Assembly: GCA_964435835.1 (NCBI GenBank)
Contig: CAYSZX010000003.1
Coordinates: 1 to 51,911, forward strand
Source of the DNA: an uncultured Candidatus Saccharibacteria bacterium
Lineage (GTDB): Bacteria > Patescibacteriota > Minisyncoccia > Minisyncoccales > JANBVM01
Length of the DNA stretch: 51,911 bases
Reading direction: 5' to 3'
A model generated the notes under the pieces. It had not been told where the DNA came from. It saw nothing but the letters and a program-made list of their open reading frames with translations, and did not search any database. Shown piece after piece: positions 1 to 28,822 of the stretch. Position 1 is the stretch's first letter; each line of letters begins with the position of its first letter. The position numbers and the translations under genes are program-made.

Positions 1-10
1 AACTTAGAAG

Positions 11-245
11 AATAAGGTAATATTACCTAAAAGTGAAAAATAAAAATGTTGAAATCTTTAATTAATTATAAAACAAAATCAGTTAATAAATCAGCAGGAA
101 TTTTAACAGTTTCTGCTATTATTAGCAAAATACTGGGAGTGGCTAGAGATTGGCTTTTGGCTAAGAATTTTGGGGCAGGAAGCGAGTTGGATGTTTATTT
201 TACTGCTTTTAAGATTCCGGATTTTATTTACAATATTTTGATTTT
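11..245 (+). repeat. Direct repeat copy 1: murJ 5' region (copy 2 at ~10540-10772)
   Basis: 46-246 aligns with 10573-10773 with about 13 differences counted by eye; 190-245 is identical to 10717-10772; upstream AATAAGGTAATATTAC shared (11-26 / 10540-10555). Confidence 0.95.
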
Positions 246-261
246 AGAGAGATTGTTGTGA
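46..261 (+). pseudogene. murJ: Truncated 5' fragment of murJ (71 aa)
   Basis: First 67 aa nearly identical to the full MurJ at 10573, then diverges (ERLL*). Confidence 0.9.
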
Positions 262-340: not shown

Positions 341-1414
341 ATGAAATTACCTAATTTTTTAAAAAGAAAACAGAATCAGGATAGTCTAAAAAATATGAGT
401 TATCCTAGAGTGGGTATTAGTCTTGGAGCTTCTTGGTCTTGGGGGGTCAGCATGATAGCGACAATGGCATTTATGAATACAATGGGTATTCTTCCTGCTC
501 TGGTGTGGGTGATTGGGAATATTTTGGCCATTCCGTTGTTTGGTTTTATTAAAGTTGGGATTAGAGGTTTTAAAAATTGGCTTAATTTTGTACCTTTTGT
601 TCTATTTGCCCTTTTTATTGCTTTAATGGCAATTATAATAAATATGCAGGCTTTAATTACGGGATTGGGAGGTGGACACGATATAGTTTCCTATAAATTT
701 TTAGACAACAACTATAGTGTTCCACTAGTAATAGGATTAGCACTTTTTGTTTTGTTTTTTGTATATAAATATGGTTTAAAAGGAGATGTTTTAAGCGATA
801 ATGGATACTATATTTTGCAGCTTGGCGCGGTAGTAGTATTAGCGGTTTCCTCAGTATTTCAGAGTAGTTTTAATATTAACCCTAACCTTGAATTAGTGAC
901 CCAAAAAGGAATCGAGTGGGTTTTCCCTTTGGGCTTTTTGGGTATAGTTACTGGGGTTTTCACTGATCCCATGATGTGGCAAAGGTTTGAGCAAAAATCA
1001 GAGGTGTTGAAGCTTAGTTTCTGGGGAGCATTCTGGTTTGCAATTTATATGTTTTTCGTTGTTCTTACAGGTTTATTCTTTAGACCAAATCTGTTTTTAG
1101 GAACTATGTTGTTAATAGTTATATTTGCATTAGCGCTATCTACTATCGGGAGCGCGATTGTGGCTACTCAATTTTTGACATCTAAGATAGGAGTTGGAAA
1201 ATTATTAGGTTTACTTTTTTCTCTTAGTGCTGTAATTTCGTGGCCTCTTCTTATGGATTTTGGAATGTCTGAAATCTGGGGTATTTATGCTAGCTATAGA
1301 TGGAAGATAGTCACTACAATGATTGCCGTTTCTTTTATGGGTAAATACGTTATAAAGAAAAAACAAAAGAAAAAAATTCTTTCTTTATTTAACAAAGTCA
1401 AGTTATATAATTGA
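341..1414 (+). CDS. Multi-pass membrane protein, probable sodium:solute symporter-like transporter
   Basis: About 10 hydrophobic segments; N-terminal SLGASWSWG..(G)...W..GN pattern and D..MWQR motif resemble SSS-family transporters. Confidence 0.55.
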   Translation: MKLPNFLKRKQNQDSLKNMSYPRVGISLGASWSWGVSMIATMAFMNTMGILPALVWVIGNILAIPLFGFIKVGIRGFKNWLNFVPFVLFALFIALMAIIINMQALITGLGGGHDIVSYKFLDNNYSVPLVIGLALFVLFFVYKYGLKGDVLSDNGYYILQLGAVVVLAVSSVFQSSFNINPNLELVTQKGIEWVFPLGFLGIVTGVFTDPMMWQRFEQKSEVLKLSFWGAFWFAIYMFFVVLTGLFFRPNLFLGTMLLIVIFALALSTIGSAIVATQFLTSKIGVGKLLGLLFSLSAVISWPLLMDFGMSEIWGIYASYRWKIVTTMIAVSFMGKYVIKKKQKKKILSLFNKVKLYN

Positions 1415-1432
1415 AAAATAATTAATTTAATT

Positions 1433-2740
1433 ATGTCAAAAGCAAAAAAAGTGAATTCTCTAAGAGGCTTTAAAAGTATATATCCTCAAGAATGGGAAAA
1501 ATGGAAATATGTTAGGAAAACAATTGAAGAAGTTTTAGAAAGTTTTGCTTTTAAAGAGATAAGTACTCCTTCAATAGAAAGCAGAAACCTGTATAAAGTT
1601 AAGCCTCCTTGGTCGGAAGGGATGATTGAAGAAACCTTTAGTTTTTTTGATTCTCAGGGTAATCATCTTACTCTTATCCCTGAACAGACTCCAACTAGAT
1701 CAAGAATGGTTCAAGAGTTAAAGCATATAGAACTACCAATTCGCTGGTTTAATACTTCAAAAAGATGGAGACAGGAAAAAGAAATTAAAAAGGATAGGGC
1801 AAGAGAGTTCTGGCAGACGGACGCAGATGTAATTGGCTGTGATTCAGTAGAGTCTGATGCGGAAATATTAGCTTGTGTGACAGAGATTTTTAAAAAGCTA
1901 AAATTAAGGAATAGAGTTGATATTCTAATAAGTGACAGGAAGCTTTTAGAAAATATTATTACTAGGGTAGGGGTTAAGAAGAAGAATTACTACGAAGCAG
2001 TAAAGATAATTGACGATAAAGAAAAAATTAACAAAAAAGAGTTTCAGGAGAGATTTGAGAATATTGGATTAAACAGAGAAGAAATTAGACTTCTTTATGA
2101 AATAATTTCTCTAAAGGGACCCATTAAGGAAACTGTAAGAGAAATTCAAGAAAAATACAGACAAACTGCGAAGAGAGGGATGGAAAGACTAGACAGAATT
2201 CTTTCTCTCTCTGAGCTTCTGGAGACATATAAGATATATGATATTTGTAAACTGGATTTATCTATAGCTCGTGGATCTTTTTATACAGGTTTAATTTTTG
2301 AGGTTTTTGACAAAGATAAAATTTTTGGTGCTTTAGCAGGAGGAGGACGCTATGATTGGCTAGTTAGTATGTATGGTGATAAAGATTTGCCGGCGATTGG
2401 GTTTGGTTTTGGCCACTTAGGAGTTGTACAAAAACTCAAAAAGGATCATTTATTTGACAACCTTTTAGAAAAAAAGAGGGTGTTTGTCTTTTGTGAAAAC
2501 AAGAAAGATTATGAATTCTTAATAAAGCTTGTTAAAAGATTAAGAGAAAAGAATTATAAGGTAGAAGCTGATGTTGGGTATAGAGCAGACAAGGATAAAG
2601 ATTTCTATATGGTTATTAAGCTAAAAAATAATTTTTTAGAAAAGAAAAAAATAGAAATTCAGGTTAAAAAAGTAAACAAAAAATTCACAGTTAAAGGATT
2701 CGATCGATGTGTAAGGAAAATTGCTTCATTTTTTGAATAA
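1433..2740 (+). CDS. Divergent histidyl-tRNA synthetase paralog (class II aaRS)
   Basis: RGFKSIYP N-terminus, TPSIE, PEQTPT, motif 2 WRQE...REFWQTDAD, ARGSFYTG, AGGGRYD, PAIGFGFG; degenerate C-terminal anticodon-binding domain. Confidence 0.85.
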   Translation: MSKAKKVNSLRGFKSIYPQEWEKWKYVRKTIEEVLESFAFKEISTPSIESRNLYKVKPPWSEGMIEETFSFFDSQGNHLTLIPEQTPTRSRMVQELKHIELPIRWFNTSKRWRQEKEIKKDRAREFWQTDADVIGCDSVESDAEILACVTEIFKKLKLRNRVDILISDRKLLENIITRVGVKKKNYYEAVKIIDDKEKINKKEFQERFENIGLNREEIRLLYEIISLKGPIKETVREIQEKYRQTAKRGMERLDRILSLSELLETYKIYDICKLDLSIARGSFYTGLIFEVFDKDKIFGALAGGGRYDWLVSMYGDKDLPAIGFGFGHLGVVQKLKKDHLFDNLLEKKRVFVFCENKKDYEFLIKLVKRLREKNYKVEADVGYRADKDKDFYMVIKLKNNFLEKKKIEIQVKKVNKKFTVKGFDRCVRKIASFFE

Positions 2741-2853
2741 CAAAGATTGTAATTGAGTTAATAGTTTAAGTAATTTTTAATAATAATTAGACCCGCAAGA
2801 GGGTTTCTGTATCTATATGTGCGGAAGAACGATAAGATAATACAATTGAGGTC

Positions 2854-2882
2854 TTGACAAATTTTTTTGAAAGATGTAGATT
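2854..2882 (+). promoter_or_regulatory. Sigma70-type promoter for tRNA-His
   Basis: TTGACA-17 nt-TAGATT directly upstream of the tRNA. Confidence 0.7.
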
Positions 2883-2903
2883 ATTAATAGAAATTCAAAA
2901 GAT

Positions 2904-2977
2904 GGTGCCTATAGTGTAATTGGTTAGCATTGAGGCCTGTGAAGCCTTAAGAGCGGGTTCAAATCCCGCTAGGCACC
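2904..2977 (+). tRNA. tRNA-His(GTG)
   Basis: Cloverleaf: acceptor GTGCCTA/TAGGCAC with encoded G-1:C73, anticodon arm GAGGC-CTGTGAA-GCCTT, T arm GCGGG-TTCAAAT-CCCGC; CCA not encoded. Confidence 0.95.
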
Positions 2978-3163
2978 CTCTTTTTAAGCTTATTATAGTT
3001 CTTTTCTTTAAAATTTTAATCTCTCTTAAAGGAAGGTAAAAAACCTTCCTTATTATTTTTTTAGGCAACCTTATAAAAATTTTAGCTCTATTTATTCGTA
3101 AGCACAACTGTTGCTCGACAAACTACGAGTTATTGTTTATTCTTTCTCTAGGTGGTTAAAAAA

Positions 3164-3898
3164 ATGAAAAAAGATAAAAAAGAATTTCTTTTTATAGCTG
3201 CTACACATGGTGATGAAGAAATTGGAGTAGCTACTATGAAAAAGATAAAAACCAATAAAGATAAATTTGATTGGATTATTGGCAACCCAAAAGCTTTCGA
3301 GCAAGAAAACAGGTTTTTTGAACGAGATTTAAACCGCTCTGCTCCGGGAAAAAAGAACGCCGAAGAATATGAACTTAGAAGAGCTTACGAAATAATGAAA
3401 ATCTGTAAAGATTACAAATATATCATTGATTTGCACGGAGCTTCAGCTTCTTGCGGAAGTTTTACATTGATTAGTTATCCAAAATTGGAGAATCTGTTCC
3501 TAGCTAGTGCTTTACCTATTAAGAACGTCGTTCTTTGGCCCTCTAAAGAGTGGAAAGAATTTGGACCACTAACTCAATTTGTTGATTGTGGCTTGGAAAT
3601 AGAATCTGGACCTAAAAAAGACCAAAAAACAAGGAGTAAACTTCGCAAGATTGTAAAGTCAATTCTTAAGAACGGAGTTAACTTTAATCTATATCAAATA
3701 AAAGAAAAAAAATGGTTTTTAGTATATGGGAAGATGAAAAAGACTAAAGCAAGAAAAAACATATCTAAAGAAATGAAAGAATTTAAAAAGATCGAAGTTG
3801 AAAAGGAGTCTTTTTATCCCTTATTAATTAATCAATACAAGGATTTAGTTTGCTATAAGATGAAGAAAATGGACTTTTTTGACCAATTTTCTTATTAG
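3164..3898 (+). CDS. Succinylglutamate desuccinylase/aspartoacylase (AstE/AspA, M14-like Zn hydrolase) family protein
   Basis: THGDE, GNPKA...RF..RDLNR, DLHG and EIE motifs; AGGTGG RBS before ATG 3164. Confidence 0.85.
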   Translation: MKKDKKEFLFIAATHGDEEIGVATMKKIKTNKDKFDWIIGNPKAFEQENRFFERDLNRSAPGKKNAEEYELRRAYEIMKICKDYKYIIDLHGASASCGSFTLISYPKLENLFLASALPIKNVVLWPSKEWKEFGPLTQFVDCGLEIESGPKKDQKTRSKLRKIVKSILKNGVNFNLYQIKEKKWFLVYGKMKKTKARKNISKEMKEFKKIEVEKESFYPLLINQYKDLVCYKMKKMDFFDQFSY

Positions 3899-4244: not shown

Positions 4245-5012
4245 ATGAAAAGTAATATATTTGTTATTACGGCTGCAGATGGTAATGGAACTGCAATTCG
4301 GGTATTAGATCACGCTTTATCGCGTGAAGAATATGCTAAACGTGGCAAGCAGATTGGTAAAGATATGGAACCTTTTGGTGCAGAACAAGCAGGGTTTCTT
4401 GTCCCAGACGAAAATCATTTTGAAATGGCAGGAGGAGAGTTTTGTGGCAACGCGGCTCGCTCGGCTGCAATCCTTATTTCAGAAATTCAAAAAAAACCAC
4501 ATGTGTCATTTACAATGTCGGGATATAGTGGAACAGTAAGTGCTAAGGTTAAGAAAAAAAGTGATACTGGTTATTTTGTTGAATGTGTTTTTCCCGGTTT
4601 ATCAACCGACTTGAAGGATATTACTCTTTCTAATGGTCAAGTTGCTACAGTAGTTGATTTGGGAGGTATTGTGCATGTAATCATAGAAGCATCTTTTCCG
4701 TCTAAGACGGAGGATTATGAGTCTGCCCACCGAGATATCACTAAGGAGCTCAACTTTGACGAGCGAAGTGCTGTCGGGGTTGTGTGGATAAATCGTATCG
4801 ATGGTGCGGTCAAAATGCATCCTGTAGTATGGGTTAAGGATGTCGATACTTTTTTCTATGAACAATCCTGTGGCTCGGGCACTATTGCCGTTAGTAAAGT
4901 GACGGGTATTTCTTCCATAATTCAGCCTACTGGTAAGAAAATTGAGGCAGAAATAAATGACGAAGAAGTAATCCTTAGAAGTAAAATGGAGGTGGTTTAT
5001 AGTGCGGATTGA
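4245..5012 (+). CDS. DapF-fold PLP-independent racemase, CntK/histidine racemase-like
   Basis: GNGT, EQAGF, EMAGGEFCGNA and PVVWV...EQSCGSGT two-cysteine motifs match the CntK pattern (EQVGF, MSGNEFCGNA, ENSCGSG) better than DapF. Confidence 0.8.
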   Translation: MKSNIFVITAADGNGTAIRVLDHALSREEYAKRGKQIGKDMEPFGAEQAGFLVPDENHFEMAGGEFCGNAARSAAILISEIQKKPHVSFTMSGYSGTVSAKVKKKSDTGYFVECVFPGLSTDLKDITLSNGQVATVVDLGGIVHVIIEASFPSKTEDYESAHRDITKELNFDERSAVGVVWINRIDGAVKMHPVVWVKDVDTFFYEQSCGSGTIAVSKVTGISSIIQPTGKKIEAEINDEEVILRSKMEVVYSAD

Positions 5013-5598
5013 TTATGTCTATGTGGAAGAGGAACTGCGATATTGCAAAGGTTTCATAGAGGTTTATAAAGAAGCCTTTGGTGGACATCCTTACTATGAA
5101 GTTTATACAAACAGAGAAGTTTTTGAGAATATTTGGAAGCCACATCTTGATAAGGGAATTATTGTTCTCGCTTGTGATAATGGTTGTGTTGTTGGGTTTG
5201 GATGCGCAAAACCGCTTTTCAAGTCTGATAAAGAGATTCAGTCTTTCTTAGAGAAATCTAAGCTTAACTTAGGTCTTTCTATTGAACTTAGTAAGACATG
5301 GTATATCTCTGAACTGGGTGTTCACAAAATGTACCGTCGTCAAGGTATTGGATTACAACTTGTTGGTCAATGCATCGCTCACATCAGCGACTCTAGCTGT
5401 TCTTATTATGTTATGCGGACAGCAGCGAAAGATTCAAATTCTATTGGATTGTTTAAAAATATTGGTGCAATTGAAGTGTCTGGTACACAAGATGTTTCTG
5501 AATCTGATCAAATTCAGATCAATAAATCTAAAAGCACCAAACGCGTTTATCTCTATGGCCGTTGCGAAGAAGCGCTTAGAAGAATTTCAGTTATTTAA
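5002..5598 (+). CDS. GNAT-family N-acetyltransferase
   Basis: YISELGVHKMYRRQGIG acetyl-CoA motif A, N..SIGLF...G; overlaps the racemase stop; GGAGGTGG RBS. Confidence 0.85.
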   Translation: MRIDYVYVEEELRYCKGFIEVYKEAFGGHPYYEVYTNREVFENIWKPHLDKGIIVLACDNGCVVGFGCAKPLFKSDKEIQSFLEKSKLNLGLSIELSKTWYISELGVHKMYRRQGIGLQLVGQCIAHISDSSCSYYVMRTAAKDSNSIGLFKNIGAIEVSGTQDVSESDQIQINKSKSTKRVYLYGRCEEALRRISVI

Positions 5599-5649: not shown

Positions 5650-6327
5650 TTATTTCTTTTCTATCTTGTATTTAATTTGAGAGTAGAGAGATTTTTTTCT
5701 CTCGTAAAAACAGGCCCATTCACGATCTCCGTATGAAAAATGCCACCATTCTCCATAAAAGGGAGCAAAATTTTCCTTAGTTAAGACATCATGAAGTAGT
5801 ATACGATTCTCTTGTTGTTTTTTAGAAAGCCCTTTTGCAAATGTTTTTATCTTTTTATTTTTAAGCTCAAAAAGCTTAGTGCCCATATCTAGATTTTTTC
5901 CTTTTTTATTGGTGAGAGTAACATCAATCGCACCACCTGTCGGGTGTCCGGCAACTAATGGCACAGCAACAAAATTGTGAGTTAATGTGTCTAATTCTTC
6001 GTTGCTGAGAGATGGATTTAGATTTTGAAGTTCATCACGTTTTTCTCTAAAGTATTTCTTTTGGATATTAGGGTGTCTATATCCATAAACGACCTTAATT
6101 CGCAATTTGTAATGTTTTTTAAGTCTTTTATTAATTGTCGCGAGTTTTTTAGCAACAGTATCTCGTACAAAAATACGTTTTCCTGTATAAGGAATCATGT
6201 CATTTTTTTTATGTTTGGCGATGATGTCTGAATCATAATAACACACATTAATCAACGGTTCTTTGTTTTCTCCAGGAAGTATTTTTTTAACTTCTTGATA
6301 AGTAATAATTTTTCTTTTTTGGGGCAT
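5650..6327 (-). CDS. D-alanyl-D-alanine dipeptidase (VanX/DdpX, M15D) family
   Basis: YGYRHP..Q, GHPTGGAIDVTL, DMGT and EWWHFSYGD motifs. Confidence 0.9.
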   Translation of the reverse strand: MPQKRKIITYQEVKKILPGENKEPLINVCYYDSDIIAKHKKNDMIPYTGKRIFVRDTVAKKLATINKRLKKHYKLRIKVVYGYRHPNIQKKYFREKRDELQNLNPSLSNEELDTLTHNFVAVPLVAGHPTGGAIDVTLTNKKGKNLDMGTKLFELKNKKIKTFAKGLSKKQQENRILLHDVLTKENFAPFYGEWWHFSYGDREWACFYERKKSLYSQIKYKIEKK

Positions 6328-6544: not shown

Positions 6545-7093
6545 ATGTCAGAAATTAAAAAAAGAAGAATACAAATTGGAGTAATGGGGTCTGCGGCGGA
6601 CTTAAATTATACTAAAGAACTGGAGAAAATTGCGGAGGGCACAGGTCGATTAATTGCCGAGAGTGGGAATATTACTATCTACGGAGCGGAAAAAGATTAT
6701 GATTCTTTATCTACAGCCGCTGCAAGAGGAGCGAAGAATGCAGGTGGATTAACTGTCGGGGTTACTTATGGAAAAGGTAAAGATATTTGGGATAAAGAGA
6801 AAAATACAGACGTTATAATTTGTAGTGGTTTAGAAAGAGGAGGAGGTCGTGAGTTTGTGTTGGTCAACAGTTGTGATGGAATCATTGCTATTTCGGGAGG
6901 CTCTGGAACCATGAACGAGATGCTGGTAGCATATCAGTTGAACATTCCAATAGTAGTTATTAAAAATACAGGTGGATGGGCTGATAAAATGGCTGATCGT
7001 TATTTTGATAATAGAAAGCGCATGAAGGCAGTAGCAGCTAAAAGTCCGGAAGACGCAGTTTCAAAAATTATAAAATTGATAAGTGAGAAGTGA
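6545..7093 (+). CDS. TIGR00725 / LOG-SLOG family Rossmann-fold protein
   Basis: IGVMGS, AARGAK.AGGLTVG, R...LVNSCDGIIAISGGSGTMNE, TGGWA motifs. Confidence 0.85.
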   Translation: MSEIKKRRIQIGVMGSAADLNYTKELEKIAEGTGRLIAESGNITIYGAEKDYDSLSTAAARGAKNAGGLTVGVTYGKGKDIWDKEKNTDVIICSGLERGGGREFVLVNSCDGIIAISGGSGTMNEMLVAYQLNIPIVVIKNTGGWADKMADRYFDNRKRMKAVAAKSPEDAVSKIIKLISEK

Positions 7094-7182: not shown

Positions 7183-7317
7183 AAATCGGAAATTTTTAGA
7201 GGTTGATTTTTCTTGACAATCCTTTTGATAATGTTATAGAATGCTTCTAGAGATTGAATAAGTATGCTCTTTAACATATAATAATACTGAAAGTAAATAA
7301 TACTGGAGGAAAAAAAT

Positions 7318-8631
7318 ATGAAAGAAAAAAGAGTTTTAAAAGGTTTTCAAGATTTCTTGCCCGAGAAAATGGTTTTAAAAAATTATTTTATTGGCAAGAT
7401 TAGAGCTGTTTATGAAAAATTTGGCTTTCTCCCTCAAGACACTCCATGTTTAGAATACGCGGACTTATTGCTTGGCAAGTATGGGGAAGAAGGGGAAAGA
7501 TTAATTTATGAATTCAGAGACAAAGGGGATCGTCATGTAGCTTTGAGATATGATTTGACTGTTCCTCTAGGGAGAGTAGTTCAAATGTATGAAAGAGAAA
7601 TTGATTTTCCGTATCGTAGATATCAAATAGGAAAGGTTTGGCGAGCAGACAAGCCTGGAAGAGGCCGATTTAGAGAGTTTATTCAAATAGATGCAGATAT
7701 AATAGGAGATGATTCAATACTTTCTGACGCAGAAACTGTTCTTCTAATTATTAATACAATGGATTCTTTAGGGATTGAAACGATGGTTAGAATAAATTCC
7801 CGCGAAGTCTTAGATGTTTTTGTTGATGTTTGTGGGATTGATGAAGAAAGGGGGGTAGACTTAATGAGAGTTATTGATAAATTCGAAAAAGTCGGGATGA
7901 AAGGAGTTATGGAAGAATTAGAAGAACTAGAATTTTCTTTAGAGATTAGAGAAAAAGTAAAAGATTATCTTTCTATTAAGGGCAACAGTGAGGAAATATT
8001 ATCATCTCTTAAGGAATTTCTAAAGGAAGGGAAGAATTCCAAGGAAGCTCTTGAGCGATTAATGAAAACTGTTGAGTTGATCAATAAAGCAGGCGATTAC
8101 AAAGAAAAGTTTAGAATTGATCCAACCATAGCTAGAGGTCTTGACTACTATACAGGTATAATTTTTGAAACAGCCTTTCTTAAAAGTCCTAGTGTGGGTA
8201 GTATTTGTTCTGGTGGTAGATTCGACCGTTTAATAAAATTGTCTTCTGGAGACTTTACGCCAGCCGTGGGAATGTCTATAGGACTAGACAGACTCTTCTT
8301 TGTTTTAGAAGAAACAGACTCTTTGCCTGATATTGAAAGAACGACCACACAGGTTTTTGTAGCTAATTTTGATGAAGAGTATATAACAGATTATCTAAAA
8401 TTGGCGAACGAATTGCGCAAAGAAGGTATCGCAGTAGAGATTTTCCCCCGACCGGTAAATTTATCTAGTCAGTTGAGTACCGCTGAAAGCAAGAAAGTTC
8501 CTATTGTTCTTATAATGGGACCAGAGGAAATGAAGAGCAACACGGTAACGGTTAGAAACATGAAGGAGCGGAATCAGGAAAAGATTTCTCGAAAACAGCT
8601 TGTTAGTAAAATTAAAAAATTAGTTGGGTAG
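7318..8631 (+). CDS. hisS: Histidine--tRNA ligase (canonical motifs)
   Basis: KGFQDFLP, LRYDLTVP, WRADKPGRGRFREFIQ.D.D, ARGLDYYTG, SGGRFD, GMSIGLDRL; intact anticodon-binding domain. Confidence 0.97.
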   Translation: MKEKRVLKGFQDFLPEKMVLKNYFIGKIRAVYEKFGFLPQDTPCLEYADLLLGKYGEEGERLIYEFRDKGDRHVALRYDLTVPLGRVVQMYEREIDFPYRRYQIGKVWRADKPGRGRFREFIQIDADIIGDDSILSDAETVLLIINTMDSLGIETMVRINSREVLDVFVDVCGIDEERGVDLMRVIDKFEKVGMKGVMEELEELEFSLEIREKVKDYLSIKGNSEEILSSLKEFLKEGKNSKEALERLMKTVELINKAGDYKEKFRIDPTIARGLDYYTGIIFETAFLKSPSVGSICSGGRFDRLIKLSSGDFTPAVGMSIGLDRLFFVLEETDSLPDIERTTTQVFVANFDEEYITDYLKLANELRKEGIAVEIFPRPVNLSSQLSTAESKKVPIVLIMGPEEMKSNTVTVRNMKERNQEKISRKQLVSKIKKLVG

Positions 8632-8681: not shown

Positions 8682-10223
8682 ATGGACAAATTAATTATAG
8701 GTAGTCATAATTTAACTATTGATGATGTTGTGAATGTTGCAAGAGACAAAGATATTATAATCGTGCTCTCAGAAAAAGCTATTGAACAGGTTAGACGAGG
8801 GCGTTCCTTCGTGGAACAGAATGTTAAGGAAGGAGAAGTTATTTATGGTGTTACTACAGGTTTCGGAAAATTCCAAGACAAAAAAATCCCTTTAGATAAA
8901 GCCAAGGAACTTCAACATAATCTTATCAAGAGTCATTCAGTAGGGGCTGGTGATCCTTTACCGGAAGATGTTGTTAGAGCAGCAATGATTATTGTTGTGA
9001 ATTCTCTTTCAAAGGGTTATTCAGGAGTTAGAGTGAAGGTTGTAAAGAAAATTGTTGAATTGCTTAACAAAAACATCTACCCTTATGTTCCTGAACAAGG
9101 CTCGGTTGGAGCTAGTGGTGATTTAGCTCCCTTGGCTCATATCGCTCTTGTTCTTACTGGAGAGGGAGAAGTTCTAGTCCACCACAAAAGGCTTAAATCG
9201 ATTAAAGTTTTAAAGAAGGAGAAGATAAAACCTCTTTCTTTAAGTTATAAAGAGGGTTTAGCGCTTATTAATGGAACTGCTGTAATGAGTGGATTAGCAT
9301 GTCTGAATATTAATTATATGAAGAATCTTTTAAAGAGTGCGGACATTGCTTCTTCCCTAAGTCTAGAGGCGATGGAGGGATTAATGAGCCCTTTTGATGA
9401 GGATTTGAATAAATTAAGACCTCATCAAGGACAAATAAATACAGCGTTAAATATAAAAAGAATATGTCAAGGAAGTGGATTGGTTTATTGGGATAAACAT
9501 CCAAAAAAAGTTCAGGATTCTTATTCGCTTAGATGTATTCCTCAAGTTCATGGAGCCCATAAGGACGCATTAAATAAGATTAAATCTTGGATGTCTACAG
9601 AGATTAACTCTGTTACTGATAACCCTTTAATTTTCTCTAAAAAAGATAAGGTTATTTCAGGGGGTAATTTCCATGGGCAGCCTGTGTCCTTGGCTATGGA
9701 TTTTTTAGGCATAGCTACTGCTGATTTATCAAATATTTCTGAAAGAAGAACAGCTAAAATGGTAGATGCAGACAATAATGAAGGACTACCAGCTTTCTTG
9801 ATATCTGAGAAGAGAGCTGGATTAGATAGTGGCTTCATGATAATGCAATATACTGCTGCCGCTCTCGTCGCGGAAAACAAAGCATTAGCTCATCCGGTGT
9901 CAGTTGATTCTATACCGACCTCTGCTAATAAGGAAGATCATGTGAGTTTTGGCACTATTGCTGCTCGCAAGTGCCGAGAAATAATTCAAAATTCTATCAA
10001 TGTAGTAGCAATAGAACTATTAAGTGCAGCACAAGGATGTGATTTTAGGGAAACCAAGAAACTTGGGAAAGGAAGCAAGGTTGCTTATGAATTAATTCGA
10101 AGTAAGGTCAAAAAAGTAGAAAAAGACAGAGTTTTATATACTGATATGGAAAAGATTAACAAAATTATTAAAAATGGGGAGCTTGTTACTAAAGTAGAAA
10201 AATCAATTGGAGAACTAAAATAA
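8682..10223 (+). CDS. hutH: Histidine ammonia-lyase
   Basis: YGVTTGFG, LIKSHSVG (His-type SH), MIO-forming GASGDLAPLAH, KEGLALINGT, QDSYSLRCIPQVHG, SGGNFHG, EDHVS. Confidence 0.95.
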   Translation: MDKLIIGSHNLTIDDVVNVARDKDIIIVLSEKAIEQVRRGRSFVEQNVKEGEVIYGVTTGFGKFQDKKIPLDKAKELQHNLIKSHSVGAGDPLPEDVVRAAMIIVVNSLSKGYSGVRVKVVKKIVELLNKNIYPYVPEQGSVGASGDLAPLAHIALVLTGEGEVLVHHKRLKSIKVLKKEKIKPLSLSYKEGLALINGTAVMSGLACLNINYMKNLLKSADIASSLSLEAMEGLMSPFDEDLNKLRPHQGQINTALNIKRICQGSGLVYWDKHPKKVQDSYSLRCIPQVHGAHKDALNKIKSWMSTEINSVTDNPLIFSKKDKVISGGNFHGQPVSLAMDFLGIATADLSNISERRTAKMVDADNNEGLPAFLISEKRAGLDSGFMIMQYTAAALVAENKALAHPVSVDSIPTSANKEDHVSFGTIAARKCREIIQNSINVVAIELLSAAQGCDFRETKKLGKGSKVAYELIRSKVKKVEKDRVLYTDMEKINKIIKNGELVTKVEKSIGELK

Positions 10224-10539
10224 ATTAATAAAGAAAACATCATTCTTAAAAGGGTTTTTAATCAAAAAGAAAAAGCTCTGTTTTTTTTAAAAGTATTTCA
10301 AGCTTTATCAGTTGAGAAAAAATCTGATTGAAACAATTTTTTTGATAATTTAAGAAAATGTAAGCTTGATTTTGGTTAAAGCTGCTATCTTTTTCTGTTC
10401 GGTTTTTTCTAAGGCTAGAAGTTTCTTAATTCAGCAAGACCACTTATTGTAAAAATACATTTTTTCTTTTATGACTCTATTGGCTAGAATTATTTTCATA
10501 GTTTTTCCATTTATGATTTAAATTTGGATAAGCAGGAAT

Positions 10540-10772
10540 AATAAGGTAATATTACTTTAAACTAAAATTGAAATGTTGAAATCTTTAATTAATTACAAGA
10601 CAAAATCAGTTAATAAATCAGCAGGAATTTTAACGGTTTCTGCTGTTGTTAGTAAAATACTGGGAATAGTTAGAGATTGGCTTTTGGCTAAGAATTTTGG
10701 GGCAGGAAGCGAACTTGATGTTTATTTTACTGCTTTTAAGATTCCGGATTTTATTTACAATATTTTGATTTT
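10540..10772 (+). repeat. Direct repeat copy 2: murJ 5' region
   Basis: Matches 11-245. Confidence 0.95.
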
Positions 10773-12201
10773 GGGAGGAATGTTGGTTTCTTTTTTGCCT
10801 TTATTCTCTGAATATTTTTCTAAGAATAAAGAACTAGCTTGGAAGTTTACTTCAAACCTTTTAAATATTTTTATTGTTTCTTTAATAACTTTAAGTTTTA
10901 TTCTTTTCTTTTTTACGCCATCCTTAATAGATATTATTGCTCCTGGGTTTAGTTATCAGCAAACGGAACAGGCAATTACTTTAACTCGAATAATGTTATT
11001 GAGCCCTATTTTCTTTGGGTTAAGTTCTATTTTTTCTGGAATTTTACAATATTTTAATAAATTTTTTATTTATAGTTTATGTCCTGTTATCTATAATTTA
11101 GGGATTATTTTTGGAATCTTATTTCTATCTCCTAAAATGGGAATCTTAGGAGTTGTATTAGGAGTTGTTTTTGGAACTTTTCTGCATTTTGTTATTCAGA
11201 TTCCTTCTGTTATTGACTGCGGTTTTCAATATAAGGCTGTTTTTGATTTAGATAATTATAAGATTAATAAAGTTTTTTCTTTAATGTTGCCAAGAATGTT
11301 TGGAGTTTCTGCTCAGCAAATAAATTTAATTATTACTAATGCTATTGCTTCTACTTTAGCTGAAGGTTCAATTACTATTTTTAATTTTGCCAATAATATT
11401 CAATATTTTCCTGTAGGGATTATCGGAGTTCCTTTTGCGGTTGCTGCTTTTCCGACTTTGTCTAAAAACTTGGCTGAAAATAATAAAGAGAGGTTTATAG
11501 ATAATTTTTCAAAAATATTTAATCAGATTGTTTATTTAACTCTTCCGGCTACTGTTTTTATTTTTATCTTAAGAGAAGAAATAGTTGGAATTCTTTTACA
11601 GCACGGATTATTTTCTCCTTTGTCGGCTAAGCTTTCTTCATCTAGTTTAGGCTTGTTTTGCTTAGGAATTCTTGCTTCTGCTTTAATTCCTTTATTATTT
11701 AGAGCTTTCTTTGCTTTGCAAGATACAAAAACTCCAACTCTAATTGCTCTTTTTTCGATGGCAGTTAATATTGTTTTGAGTTTTCTGTTTACTAAAGAGT
11801 GGTTTTACCTTCATCAAAAATTACGAAATATTTTTTCTTTTCTCCGAACAGCTGATATCGCTGTTTTAGGTTTACCTTTAGCTTTTTCTGTGGCTGTTAT
11901 CCTTCAACTTGTTTTAATGATTCTTTTTTTAAAAAATAAGTTTAAAGAAATTGATTTTGAAAAAATTGGTACTAACTTCTTAAAGGTTTTATTTTCTAGT
12001 CTTGTTTTGTTTTTTTCAAGTTATGTATTAAAATTTCTAGTTAGTGAGATTTTTACTACTCAATCCTTGTTTTTAGATTTCTTTCAAGTTTTTATAATAG
12101 GAACGATCGGTTCTTTGATTTATTTATTAGTTACTCTTATTTTATCTGTTTCTTCAACGGATTTAATTTTGGCTAAAATATTTAAAAATGCAAAAAATTA
12201 A
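10573..12201 (+). CDS. murJ: Lipid II flippase MurJ (MviN)
   Basis: SKILG.VRD, FGAG.ELD.YFTAFKIPD, FLPLFS, RAFFALQDTKTP; many TM helices. Confidence 0.95.
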   Translation: MLKSLINYKTKSVNKSAGILTVSAVVSKILGIVRDWLLAKNFGAGSELDVYFTAFKIPDFIYNILILGGMLVSFLPLFSEYFSKNKELAWKFTSNLLNIFIVSLITLSFILFFFTPSLIDIIAPGFSYQQTEQAITLTRIMLLSPIFFGLSSIFSGILQYFNKFFIYSLCPVIYNLGIIFGILFLSPKMGILGVVLGVVFGTFLHFVIQIPSVIDCGFQYKAVFDLDNYKINKVFSLMLPRMFGVSAQQINLIITNAIASTLAEGSITIFNFANNIQYFPVGIIGVPFAVAAFPTLSKNLAENNKERFIDNFSKIFNQIVYLTLPATVFIFILREEIVGILLQHGLFSPLSAKLSSSSLGLFCLGILASALIPLLFRAFFALQDTKTPTLIALFSMAVNIVLSFLFTKEWFYLHQKLRNIFSFLRTADIAVLGLPLAFSVAVILQLVLMILFLKNKFKEIDFEKIGTNFLKVLFSSLVLFFSSYVLKFLVSEIFTTQSLFLDFFQVFIIGTIGSLIYLLVTLILSVSSTDLILAKIFKNAKN

Positions 12202-26407: not shown

Positions 26408-27265
26408 ATGAATAATTGTCCTGAATGTGGAGGCAACATCTTAAAAAATAATGTCTGCAGTAAATGTGGGTTAGTAATATCTCCCCAAATAGTTAAGGAA
26501 GTTTCTTTTAGAAGTAAACACCATGGACCAGGTACTAATATTCTTTTAGCGGGAGGAACAGGGCTTGGTTCTTTTTTGTCTCGAAAAGACCGAGATTGGA
26601 GAGGTAATCCAATTCCTCCTTCTCAGAAGGAGAAAATAAAAAGATTAAGAAAATGGCAGAATCGATTTAAGAGTTATCGCTGTCAACGAGAAAGAGCTAT
26701 TATTTTGCTTTGTCAGTTTTCTTCTTCAATTGGTATTCCTCCTTCAAGAAGAAAAAAGCCGGCAGCAATTATAAGAACTTTTTTTAATTCTGAAAAAAAG
26801 TTGACTGGGCATAGCCTTGAATATTTTGTTGCTGCAGTGATATATTTGGCATTCAAAAACAGCGAATGTCCAATACAAATTAAGGAAATTGTTAAGAAGC
26901 TGGATTTGCAATTTAAAAGCTTTTTGTCTTATATAAGAATCCTTTATGAAATATTAAGAAAAAAGGGGAAGCTTAAAACCGGGATCAAAACCAATATTGA
27001 CCCTTGCTCTTTAGTTGCTAGAATTTGTTCTAAGCTTGAACTTACTATTCCCGTGCAGAAAAAAGCTATTGAAATTATTAAGAAATACATGAACTCTCCA
27101 ATGTTTTTTGGAAAGGATCCGGCTGGGATTGCCGGGGGTGCTATCTACGTAGTTACAAGACATTACAGAACCCAAGAGGAGATTGCGGAAACAGCAGGCG
27201 TTTCGGTAGTTACATTAAGAAGTCGATATCAGGAGATGCAGGAGATGTTAAATTTAAAAAAATAA
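26408..27265 (+). CDS. Archaeal-type transcription initiation factor IIB (TFB) homolog
   Basis: Zn ribbon CPECG...CSKCGLVI; B-linker RLRKWQ; cyclin repeat 1 GHSLEYFVAAVIYLA...P..IKEI; repeat 2 GKDPAGIAGGAIY and HTH RTQEEIAETAGVSVVTLRSRYQEM. Confidence 0.92.
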   Translation: MNNCPECGGNILKNNVCSKCGLVISPQIVKEVSFRSKHHGPGTNILLAGGTGLGSFLSRKDRDWRGNPIPPSQKEKIKRLRKWQNRFKSYRCQRERAIILLCQFSSSIGIPPSRRKKPAAIIRTFFNSEKKLTGHSLEYFVAAVIYLAFKNSECPIQIKEIVKKLDLQFKSFLSYIRILYEILRKKGKLKTGIKTNIDPCSLVARICSKLELTIPVQKKAIEIIKKYMNSPMFFGKDPAGIAGGAIYVVTRHYRTQEEIAETAGVSVVTLRSRYQEMQEMLNLKK

Positions 27266-27340: not shown

Positions 27341-28822
27341 ATGAGTAAAAATAAAAAAAGCAAAAAAGATAAAGTAAGAAAGATAAAAGTAAGGGTTGTT
27401 GGTATTGGTGGAGGAGGAGGTTCTGTTGCTTCTAAAATTTCTCGTAAAGTAAAAGAAGCTTCTTTTTACGCTGTTGATACTGATGCCAGGGCTTTAAAAA
27501 GAGTTTCTAAAAATGTTAAAAAAGTAAGACTTGGGAAAGACATTACCCGCGGTTTAGGAACTGGTATGGATTTTGAAATGGGGGAAAAAATAGCTAAGGA
27601 AGAGAAAAGTGAAATTAAGGAAATTTTTAAAGATCAGGATGTTGTTATTCTAATTGGCTGTCTGGGGGGCGGTTTTGCTTCAGGAGCAGCTTCGATTTTA
27701 GCTGATGAGTCTAAGAAAATGGGTAATATTACTTACGGAGTTTTTACTTTACCTTTTCAATTTGAAGGAAGGAAAAAAGCAAAAATTGCTAAAAAAAGCT
27801 TAAAGAAAATAAAAAAGAATATAGATGCTTTTTCTATTATTCCTAATGATAGAATTTTTAAAATTATAGAAAAATCAGCTCCTTTGAAAGAGGCTTTAGC
27901 TGTTATTAATCAACATTTAGCTCAATCAATTCGTGGATTGCTTGAAACTATTTATGGGACAGGAATTATTAATATTGATTTTGCTGACTTAGAAACTGTT
28001 TTTTCAGGAAGAGGTAAATTGGCTTATCTGAATTCAATTAGGGTGAAAAAGAAAGATAAAAAAGAGAAAGTTTTTAAAAAAATAATAGGTTCTCCTTTGT
28101 ATCCTTATACTATTAAAAATGGGAAAGGAGTTTTGTTTAATATATCGGGACAAAGAAATCTTTCTTTAGCTCAAGTTAACAATGTAGCTGAGGCTATTTC
28201 AAAGAAAGTCAGTAGAAGTGCTAAGATTATTTTTGGAATTTCTAAATCTAAAAAGAAAACTATTACCAGAGTTAATTTATTAGTTGTTGGTTGCGATGAA
28301 TCAAATCTTTTAGGAAAGAAGAAGCAAAAGTCTAAGAAAAGGAAAAAAACTAAGAAAAAAGAAAGGGTTCTTGAAGAGATTCCAGAAGAAAAAACTAAAA
28401 AGGTTAAGATTGAAAACTTGGGTTTACCTCCCAAAACAGTAAATCTTCTTTCTAAAAATCAGATTAAAACTGTAGCTGGCCTAATTCGAAGAAAAAAAGA
28501 GAGTCTTTTAGATATTGATGGAATAGGACCAGGAAGACTGAAAAAGGTTGATGAAGCCTTAGAGTTATTAGGTCTTAATTTAAAGAAAAAAGAACCTGAA
28601 AAGAAAAAAGGGGCAGAAAAAACTAAGAAAAAACAAGAAGATAAAGAAAAGCAAAAAAAAGAAAAGAAGAGTAAGAAAAAGAAGAAGAAAAAAGACAAAA
28701 AGAAAAAAAAGAAAATCAGAAAAAACGCTCTTCAGGTTAAAGAAGATATTAAAAAAGCAAAAAAGGAGATTATTTCCAAAGAAAATATGTGGGAAAAACC
28801 AACTTTTTTGCGTAAAAAATAA
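27341..28822 (+). CDS. Divergent FtsZ-family protein with inserted RNAP alpha-CTD-like domain and Lys-rich linkers
   Basis: VVGIGGGG, TRGLGTG, LGGGFASG, PFQFEG, INIDFADL, terminal EKPTFLRKK; IENLGLPPKTVNLL...I.TV..L......LL.I.GIG insert. Confidence 0.88.
   Translation: MSKNKKSKKDKVRKIKVRVVGIGGGGGSVASKISRKVKEASFYAVDTDARALKRVSKNVKKVRLGKDITRGLGTGMDFEMGEKIAKEEKSEIKEIFKDQDVVILIGCLGGGFASGAASILADESKKMGNITYGVFTLPFQFEGRKKAKIAKKSLKKIKKNIDAFSIIPNDRIFKIIEKSAPLKEALAVINQHLAQSIRGLLETIYGTGIINIDFADLETVFSGRGKLAYLNSIRVKKKDKKEKVFKKIIGSPLYPYTIKNGKGVLFNISGQRNLSLAQVNNVAEAISKKVSRSAKIIFGISKSKKKTITRVNLLVVGCDESNLLGKKKQKSKKRKKTKKKERVLEEIPEEKTKKVKIENLGLPPKTVNLLSKNQIKTVAGLIRRKKESLLDIDGIGPGRLKKVDEALELLGLNLKKKEPEKKKGAEKTKKKQEDKEKQKKEKKSKKKKKKKDKKKKKKIRKNALQVKEDIKKAKKEIISKENMWEKPTFLRKK

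Follow-up and report, generated by a model that had tools for sequence, protein, structure and literature searches.

A rare histidyl-tRNA synthetase paralog with a shortened histidine-binding loop, encoded next to a predicted transporter in Patescibacteria

Introduction

What can a histidyl-tRNA synthetase (HisRS) be doing if its histidine-binding loop is altered and an intact HisRS is encoded a few kilobases away? The question is raised by a 51,911-nucleotide stretch of DNA (contig CAYSZX010000003.1, positions 1 to 51,911) of an uncultured Candidatus Saccharibacteria bacterium, called here the window. It carries a divergent hisS-like gene, whose product we call paralog A, and, further downstream, an extra, intact HisRS (HisRS B). 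An earlier note on this DNA had described the divergent gene as a second HisRS lying next to its own tRNA-His, and had offered altered specificity (D-His or a histidine analog), tRNA-independent ligation or inhibitor resistance as its possible roles. Both conserved partners of the gene, a transporter gene upstream and the extra HisRS, had been overlooked. We find that the family to which paralog A belongs is rare, conserved and monophyletic, and that it is under purifying selection.

In HisRS the arginine of the HisA motif catalyses activation and the hydroxyls of two tandem tyrosines recognise the histidine side chain (PMC11363354). One of these two hydroxyls is lost in the paralog family.

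The altered active site

The characteristic motifs of paralog A read PEQTPTRSRMV, WRQEKEIKKDRAREFWQ (motif 2), RGSFYTG and GFGFGHLG; in HisRS B the corresponding histidine-binding loop is RGLDYYTG. As the earlier note had seen, the loop is one residue short and carries FY in place of YY, and motif 2 and the Arg-less motif 3 also stand in the open reading frame (ORF) as it had quoted them. RGSFYTG was found in 26 of 26 family sequences spanning the loop (27 family sequences were present among 236, the 27th being a fragment), so the deletion and the Tyr-to-Phe change are neither chance nor an assembly error. Contigs from three DNA runs of one study, possibly the source sample, span the surrounding island with no listed difference in paralog A.

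An alignment of 23 family proteins with 188 other HisRS proteins, each of 380-520 amino acids (aa), was used to compare individual positions. The HisA loop has seven residues in 23/23 family proteins and eight in 187/188 of the others. F283 is Phe in 100% of the family, and Tyr occupies the same column in 99% of other HisRS. The motif-2 segment is one residue longer in all 23 family proteins (vs 2/188 elsewhere) and contains K119 for a Gln that is present in 83% of the others and D121 for a Gly that is present in 95%; position 124 is Lys in 78% of the family and Arg in 97% of other HisRS, the window's own paralog A having Arg. Five positions of the ordering loop (K57, P58, P59, W60 and G63) are each 100% conserved in the family and correspond to a gap in about 80% of the 188 other proteins. 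Residues 53-63 of the Thermus thermophilus enzyme form an ordering loop over the active site (PMC4357726), a role that the family's loop may share by analogy.

E84, T86, R113, E115, R122, Q128, D132, R280, Y284 and the GGRY sequence are invariant in the 23 family proteins. The family has thus retained, as canonical HisRS has, the ATP-binding residues of class II motif 2, the amino-acid-binding Glu, Thr, Gln and Asp, and HisB GGRY. Of these, E84, T86 and Q128 are presumably the ligands of the alpha-amino and carboxyl groups. The score of paralog A with the HisRS equivalog model TIGR00442 is nevertheless under the cut-off of 286.75 bits, and that with the HisZ model TIGR00443 (173.3 bits) is also under the cut-off (271.65). 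A structure model of paralog A (predicted local distance difference test score, pLDDT, 87.7, and <50 for residues 58-62) superimposed on Thermoplasma HisRS 1wu7 with a template modelling (TM) score of 0.83.

The absence of Arg from motif 3, which had been taken as a sign of changed function, loses that meaning in the comparison: Arg is found at this position in just 44% of the 188 other HisRS and is missing from the solved Thermoplasma and Trypanosoma enzymes. The anticodon-binding domain had been called eroded. This description fits insofar as PF03129 gave no match in paralog A or in six of six family members at E<=1 (the nearest ordinary relative matches at E 4.7e-15); the domain is nonetheless still predicted to be alpha/beta, remodelled and not deleted.

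Substitution rates were estimated for 15 family genes. Of 105 pairs, 64 had a dS of 0.05-1.5, and for these the median ratio of nonsynonymous to synonymous rates (dN/dS) was 0.122. The window gene gave saturated pairs (dS at least 1.7 or undefined; dN 0.31-0.39), which this median excludes. The lowest regional value, 0.037, was obtained for residues 271-340, which include the altered loop, and the C-terminal domain had 0.227. Taking into account that the catalytic Arg and one Tyr are kept and that they lie in the region under the strongest constraint, these sequence data suggest that the enzyme is active and that its pocket has changed.

That paralog A is a decaying, redundant copy is hardly credible. 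Its C-terminal domain is the fastest-changing part (dN/dS 0.23; the corresponding domain of the extra HisRS has 0.115) and the family has a long stem branch. However, frames are intact over 53-100% identity, the median dN/dS is about 0.12 and the identical deletion is present in all members.

For T. thermophilus HisRS it was reported that E114 is essential, that the contacts of Q117 and K118 are minor and that mutations in the anticodon domain cost 5- to 9-fold (PMC4357726). When these residues were placed on paralog A by motif spacing, the equivalent of E114 was found to be kept and that of R115 lost; the equivalent of R122 is kept in the window protein and is Lys in most members. The tRNA-facing side of the paralog appears to be changed, which does not show it to be dead.

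Extent and origin of the family

Among 5.8 billion proteins searched, 21 homologs at 54-61% identity and two fragments were obtained, followed by two proteins at 41-43% and then by matches at about 30%. Profile searching of 1.84 billion representatives yielded a single further family fragment, and the ESM Atlas returned HisRS clusters only. No family member was detected in 60 relatives of the host or in a 400-genome sample of the phylum, the single other match in that sample (G195) being an ordinary HisRS. A viral origin was also considered and rejected: viral contigs contained no family member or transporter homolog, and no PHROG match was better than E 0.06.

In a quick 78-row tree the paralog family formed a single clade (Shimodaira-Hasegawa-like approximate likelihood ratio test, SH-aLRT, 100) with a stem of 1.03, joined to the group of protein P0023 (99). 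P0023 shares 99% identity with a gene from Nanohaloarchaea, and Halobacteria are next. A careful 33-row tree from which the trait columns had been removed (the smaller trees used LG+G4) again showed the family (100/100) as sister to the P0023 group (100/99). By these trees the sister group is nanohaloarchaeal/haloarchaeal HisRS, which bears out the archaeal origin that had been suspected, and PEQTPT and the Arg-less motif 3 are inherited traits, present in ordinary enzymes too. The family does not group with ordinary HisRS sharing its loop. The HisA loop has eight residues in 117/118 nanohaloarchaeal and haloarchaeal HisRS (the remaining one was unmatched). A halophile-type singleton, P0122, has a similar deletion with FY and a Trp within its ordering loop; its insertion domain is damaged and an anticodon-domain match is lacking. 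That it shares the loop deletion by descent was neither shown nor rejected (approximately unbiased test, p 0.31).

Two arrangements were noted in the archaeal relatives. Halobacteria have the nanohaloarchaeal-type HisRS in fusion with an N-terminal domain of about 260 aa without a Pfam match (L074-L077, L080, L083; P0118), and in two Nanohaloarchaea the same domain is encoded by a separate upstream gene (L071:2188-2946; L085:1356-2129).

A predicted transporter is encoded directly upstream

The paralog gene was studied in 20 loci: the window itself, six loci of genomes and 13 of metagenomes. Several are identical to one another or 98% alike, so that the loci amount to about 12 distinct groups. 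The homologous loci are recorded under Patescibacteria groups. Host genomes are 0.5-1.6 Mb in size; that of the window has 538 kb in 19 contigs and is 96% complete.

In all 20 loci a gene for a membrane protein of 342-363 aa lies directly upstream of the paralog; where the spacing was measured (15 loci), it ranged from -14 to +18 nt. Its family comprises 28 proteins at 59-68% identity and no distant matches, and all six of its loci in genome contigs are on the same contigs as the paralog family. No Pfam family, PF00474 included, matched at E<=0.1. The structure model (pLDDT 74) aligned over 320 residues to the Na+-coupled sialic acid symporter 5nva (VIA Z 25.2, root mean square deviation 3.8), suggesting a LeuT-fold core; the best Foldseek match was CHT1 (E 2e-5), a BFVD match had E 1.2e-8, and at the level of features the protein resembled unannotated phage clusters and a cluster with 40% PF00474. 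The predicted fold is common to the sodium:solute symporters SiaT and CHT1 (Z 25.2 and 23.2), from which the protein differs in consisting of a core of about 360 aa only, in its 13-17% identity and in matching neither Pfam nor PHROG.

The tight, often overlapping coupling of the two genes could also mean that paralog A is a non-catalytic sensor of histidine or uncharged tRNA that regulates the transporter, as a HisZ- or Gcn2-like protein might. The remodelled HisA loop and the Tyr-to-Phe change recall Gcn2, in whose HisRS-like domain this loop is remodelled and Tyr hydroxyls are lost (PMC11363354). Yet Gcn2 has lost the catalytic Arg together with both hydroxyls and is fused to a kinase, whereas the paralog is a stand-alone 435-aa frame that retains one Tyr, R280 and the ATP-binding residues, R280 and the latter being invariant. 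HisZ is likewise a HisRS paralog that occurs beside a working HisRS and lacks an anticodon-domain match; it has no adenylation activity and its partner is HisG (PMC9437257). In contrast, paralog A keeps the catalytic residues, scores below the HisZ cut-off and is partnered by a transporter, and HisG was not found in the 96% complete window genome. A sensor role is of small probability.

An extra HisRS accompanies the paralog

Paralog A is the third hisS-like gene of its genome and not the second, another being present on contig C6. The C6 gene follows a signal-peptidase-like gene (a label taken from the translation), like comparable genes in four other loci, and is therefore taken as the housekeeping copy; HisRS B is itself an extra. 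Three of the 20 contigs were too short to be judged, and in 17/17 of the others a further HisRS gene was found within 5 kb of the paralog. It lies directly after the paralog in 15 loci (two of them cut by contig ends) and 4.6 kb downstream in the window; in L041 the HisRS is located divergently upstream with a tRNA-His and may be the housekeeping gene. The active sites of these HisRS are normal, yet their types differ. Thirteen are of one type (37-40% identical to the window copy where measured). Two are of a second type, which is 26% identical to the first and groups with host-type HisRS (100/98). The L026 paralog is 97% identical to that of L023, and the L042 paralog 87% identical to that of L027, although the extra HisRS types differ within each pair. 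A swapped HisRS type next to such similar paralogs indicates that the extra gene was recruited separately at least twice, probably three times.

Six of six host genomes have three HisRS-domain genes. In the 400-genome sample (E<=1e-20; the unpublished genome G212, with one match, is included) 372 genomes had one, 18 had two, 2 had three and 8 had none, and by this comparison the paralog is not needed for housekeeping. Extra HisRS proteins contain 0-3 His residues, vs 3-7 in the hosts' third copies. In front of HisRS B there is a 12-mer that we take to be boxA-like. It was observed that this 12-mer (window 7265-7276) is the sole exact copy in the genome, 53 nt before the gene, and that near copies precede unrelated extra HisRS genes in other cassettes.

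These data bear on the possibility that paralog A is a working L-His:tRNA-His ligase variant, of high affinity or inhibitor-resistant, in a histidine-scavenging module of auxotrophs whose transporter imports L-His. The core catalytic residues are all kept, the whole chain has the HisRS fold, the extra HisRS is poor in His, an extra tRNA-His is present in the window, HisG was not found in four of five hosts tested, and sole HisRS frames as short as 301-321 aa occur in relatives of one host (see Discussion). What such a variant leaves unexplained is why an intact HisRS is kept alongside and is replaced by an unrelated type. Moreover, the length of the HisA loop is otherwise nearly invariant, paralog A falls under the TIGR00442 cut-off, and His-poor HisRS are common (78/200 with at most 1 His). 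We consider this alternative the main rival, if on the doubtful side.

Probable mobility of the cassette

An XRE regulator gene precedes the transporter gene in 15/18 loci and a serine recombinase is nearby in three. Paralogs are 94-98% identical between Curtissbacteria and Komeilibacteria records. In the window a copy of the murJ 5' end forms the left border of an island of about 10.3 kb, which is absent from the 60 relatives searched. This context, the near-identical paralogs in different groups, the duplicated murJ end and the absence from relatives suggest that the cassette is mobile. Its only recurring parts are the transporter, the paralog, the extra HisRS and the XRE regulator, and no biosynthetic or tailoring enzyme is conserved across the cassette loci. 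A riboswitch or T-box was considered and rejected: tRNAs alone were found in 10 loci, and the conserved DNA upstream of the transporter is the XRE regulator gene.

A mobile context with serine recombinase and XRE regulator, and an extra HisRS with its own promoter match, could be expected of a producer/immunity module in which a His-adenylate-like HisRS inhibitor is made by the paralog and exported through the membrane protein, self-resistance being conferred by the extra HisRS. A second aminoacyl-tRNA synthetase (aaRS) about 30% identical to the housekeeping enzyme is the pattern of aaRS-inhibitor producers (PMC9437257), and in such clusters an extra, distant aaRS stands alongside, as it does here. 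The conserved biosynthetic or tailoring enzymes of those clusters are, however, lacking in the cassette; the best fold matches of the transporter are uptake symporters, and the extra HisRS are of several unrelated types with ordinary active sites, among which a shared resistance trait is not evident. Such a module is improbable.

The tRNA-His and other genes confined to the window

The features of the window that are discussed here are collected in Table 1.

Table 1. Features of the roughly 10.3-kb island and of paralog A, in window coordinates
Feature	Position	Strand	Basis
Copy of murJ 5' end, 71-codon fragment	7..258	+	90.5% identical to 10536-10785 over 253 nt; ORF 46-261
Membrane protein, 357 aa, predicted minimal LeuT/SSS (sodium:solute symporter) transporter fold	341..1414	+	Model; directly upstream of paralog A
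HisRS paralog A, 435 aa, intact frame	1433..2740	+	PF13393 E 5.7e-37; TIGR00442 240.7 bits
Ordering loop K57-G63, PP insertion and invariant W60	1601..1621	+	Alignment of 23 family vs 188 other HisRS
Motif 2: R113, E115, R122, Q128 kept; acceptor-binding loop one residue longer	1769..1816	+	Alignment
HisA loop RGSFYTG, one residue short and with Phe for the first Tyr; catalytic Arg and second Tyr retained	2270..2290	+	
Motif 3 without Arg, inherited subfamily trait	2399..2422	+	Alignment, trees, solved relatives
Remodelled C-terminal domain, predicted alpha/beta, with a short loop in place of one helix	2453..2737	+	Model; no PF03129 match
Sigma70-like promoter match TTGACA-17-TAGATT before tRNA	2854..2882	+	10/12 matches
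Extra tRNA-His(GUG)	2905-2978, G-1 at 2904	+	Standard G-1:C73
AstE/aspartoacylase-like deacylase, window only	3152..3898	+	PF24827 E 2.9e-14
Histidine-racemase-like DapF-fold protein, both Cys motifs, window only	4245..5012	+	NF052224 96 bits (cut-off 400)
GNAT acetyltransferase, window only	5002..5598	+	PF00583 E 1e-11
D-Ala-D-Ala dipeptidase-like protein, window only	5650..6327	-	PF01427 E 7.7e-16
SLOG/TIGR00725-like protein, window only	6545..7093	+	PF18306 E 2.3e-29
Promoter match (11/12) and boxA-like 12-mer before extra HisRS	7213..7276	+	
Extra intact HisRS B	7318..8631	+	TIGR00442 390.7 bits (above cut-off); PF03129 E 2.2e-19
Histidine ammonia-lyase HutH, window only	8682..10223	+	TIGR01225 658.7 bits (cut-off 539)

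The range originally assigned to paralog A (1433..2977) holds the gene up to 2740, the remainder being spacer and tRNA. That this tRNA-His is the paralog's own finds no support, as in each of the 19 other loci the paralog is not directly followed by a tRNA-His. The tRNA and a promoter match in front of it are present as the note had said; such sites are no more frequent in the region than in shuffled sequence (36 vs 37.3). A second tRNA-His is located on contig C8; the window tRNA matches it in 62/76 columns and differs at 14. When the five other hosts were searched for tRNA-His by pattern and BLAST, one gene was obtained in one of the five genomes, and this search is too insensitive to use.

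The racemase-like protein, which scored 54 bits with the CntK model (cut-off 300), is encoded in 1/20 loci and was not found in the five other host genomes (possibly incomplete); neither was HutH. HisG (PF01634) was not found in G000 (the 96% complete genome), G460, G461 or G462 and had one match in G458, G459 not having been searched. It may be noted that HutH is above its cut-off in a genome that yielded no HisG match; a presumed auxotroph would not be expected to break histidine down.

Racemase-like genes of a similar kind were found in 4/400 genomes of the phylum sample, in three of the four behind a YerC repressor gene. A gene of unknown function was found in 2/400 genomes, both times beside the racemase, and is homologous (30%, E 4e-18) to a gene that lies directly behind the paralog in L041; the L041 gene had no match in Pfam, NCBIfam or PDB and was found in 0/5 other hosts. 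In two loci, then, there is contact with a rare histidine-linked system. This offers a lead towards a histidine derivative as substrate and does not prove it. As an observation apart, YerC repressor, histidine-racemase-like gene and unknown enzyme make up a rare module (L139:4884-6735; L140:3802-9856; L141:2648-5364; L041:7956-8544), and its neighbours in G384 are hisS, tRNA-His, a pyruvoyl decarboxylase-like gene and a his operon, the racemase being between hisS and the operon.

Could a non-standard amino acid, such as D-His or a ring-modified His, be loaded on tRNA-His, here the adjacent extra tRNA, for non-ribosomal or recoded use? The pocket is reshaped with its chemistry intact, and the island contains a racemase-like gene and an extra tRNA-His; among the four similar racemases three are preceded by YerC and one lies in a his cluster with hisS and tRNA-His, and a racemase-linked gene type is found behind the L041 paralog. 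On the other hand, the presumed ligands of the alpha-amino and carboxyl groups are unaltered, the window tRNA is standard in its G-1:C73 and its GUG, the 19 other loci have neither the tRNA nor the racemase, the racemase was not found in the five other hosts, and it could equally supply L-His. Loading of tRNA-His in this way is quite unlikely. The D-His specificity proposed earlier is weakened by the distribution of the racemase-like gene and retains some backing from the L041 gene; the constant racemase link of a racemase-based D-His system is missing.

Outside the island, the window (26408-27265) encodes an archaeal-type TFIIB-like protein in a bacterial genome (PF00382 E 1.1e-22), and two FtsZ-like genes were recognised by eye, at window 27341-28822 (with a long lysine-rich tail) and at C6 21260-22186.

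Discussion

In the reading that we favour, tentatively, three elements belong together: transporter-fed activation of a histidine derivative, an acceptor other than ordinary tRNA-His, and a spare HisRS protecting translation. The predicted transporter would import the derivative, paralog A would activate it with ATP and pass it on in activated form, and the spare intact HisRS would keep L-His-tRNA synthesis accurate. We infer altered specificity and a tRNA-independent role of paralog A, and likewise its catalytic activity, its substrate and acceptor, the direction of transport and the protective role of the extra HisRS. A fuller version, in which the substrate is a non-standard His (D-His or ring-methylated) that enters by its own minimal transporter and is transferred to a dedicated tRNA-His, a protein or a small molecule while the recruited HisRS shields translation, we consider unlikely.

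Several observations weigh against the favoured reading. A single HisRS locus with a frame of 301-321 residues was found in 17/30 relatives of the host G458 (the count leaves out four more genomes, whose matches were cut, split or double), and the third HisRS copies of two hosts, of 321 and 302 aa, have no PF03129 match. Within this phylum, lack of the anticodon domain does not necessarily abolish charging, and this feature is not decisive. The R115 equivalent is also absent from the ordinary nanohaloarchaeal sister, the Q117 and K118 contacts of the T. thermophilus enzyme are minor (PMC4357726), and R124 is still Arg in the window protein, though Lys in 78% of the family. A conserved acceptor gene was not found in the cassette (20 loci), and the racemase-like gene, HutH and the L041 gene were each found in 0/5 other hosts. 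The loci are related and partly duplicates, so that the counts overstate their independence, and the evidence consists of sequences and predicted models. Single HisRS of about 300-320 aa, in which an anticodon-binding domain would not fit, are encoded in many genomes of the phylum: they were also seen in 3/31 genomes around G459, itself included (examples are L060:915-1877 and L066:1465-2370).

Among known systems, the closest relatives are the nanohaloarchaeal and haloarchaeal HisRS (solved relatives 1wu7 and Trypanosoma 3hri/3hrk), which share with the paralog 41-43% identity, PEQTPT, the Arg-less motif 3 and the catalytic residues. Unlike the paralog they have the eight-residue YY loop (117/118), a normal motif-2 loop and an intact anticodon domain, and no transporter homolog was found nearby in 20 loci. 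PoxA/EpmA and the amino acid:carrier protein ligases provide a model for adenylation that is kept with a changed substrate or acceptor, and TyrZ, IleRS2 and SerRS2 are protective or inhibitor-resistant second aaRSs (PMC9437257). None of these class II aaRS-like ligases and second synthetases is derived from HisRS, and the C-terminal domain of the paralog is remodelled, not deleted.

In the available text of PMC9437257, HisZ is the sole HisRS paralog tabulated and no duplicated HisRS with a special role appears. Archaeal-type TyrRS, TrpRS and TrpRS homologs have been reported in the same phylum (PMC5370408). The paralog family is not described in the available portions of PMC5388404, PMC5370408, PMC11580382 and PMC8319005, and full-text literature searches, whose scope mostly excluded subscription papers and also supplements, returned no description of it.

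If paralog A is a mere HisRS variant, the family shows that the HisA loop can be shortened, alongside the finding that a sole short HisRS is common in part of the phylum. If the favoured reading is true, it would mean a new function for the HisRS family and a metabolic activity in bacteria that are thought to be minimal. A HisRS scaffold accepting histidine analogs would be useful for genetic code expansion, and in the fuller version considered above the cassette would represent a ready-made orthogonal histidine-analog system.

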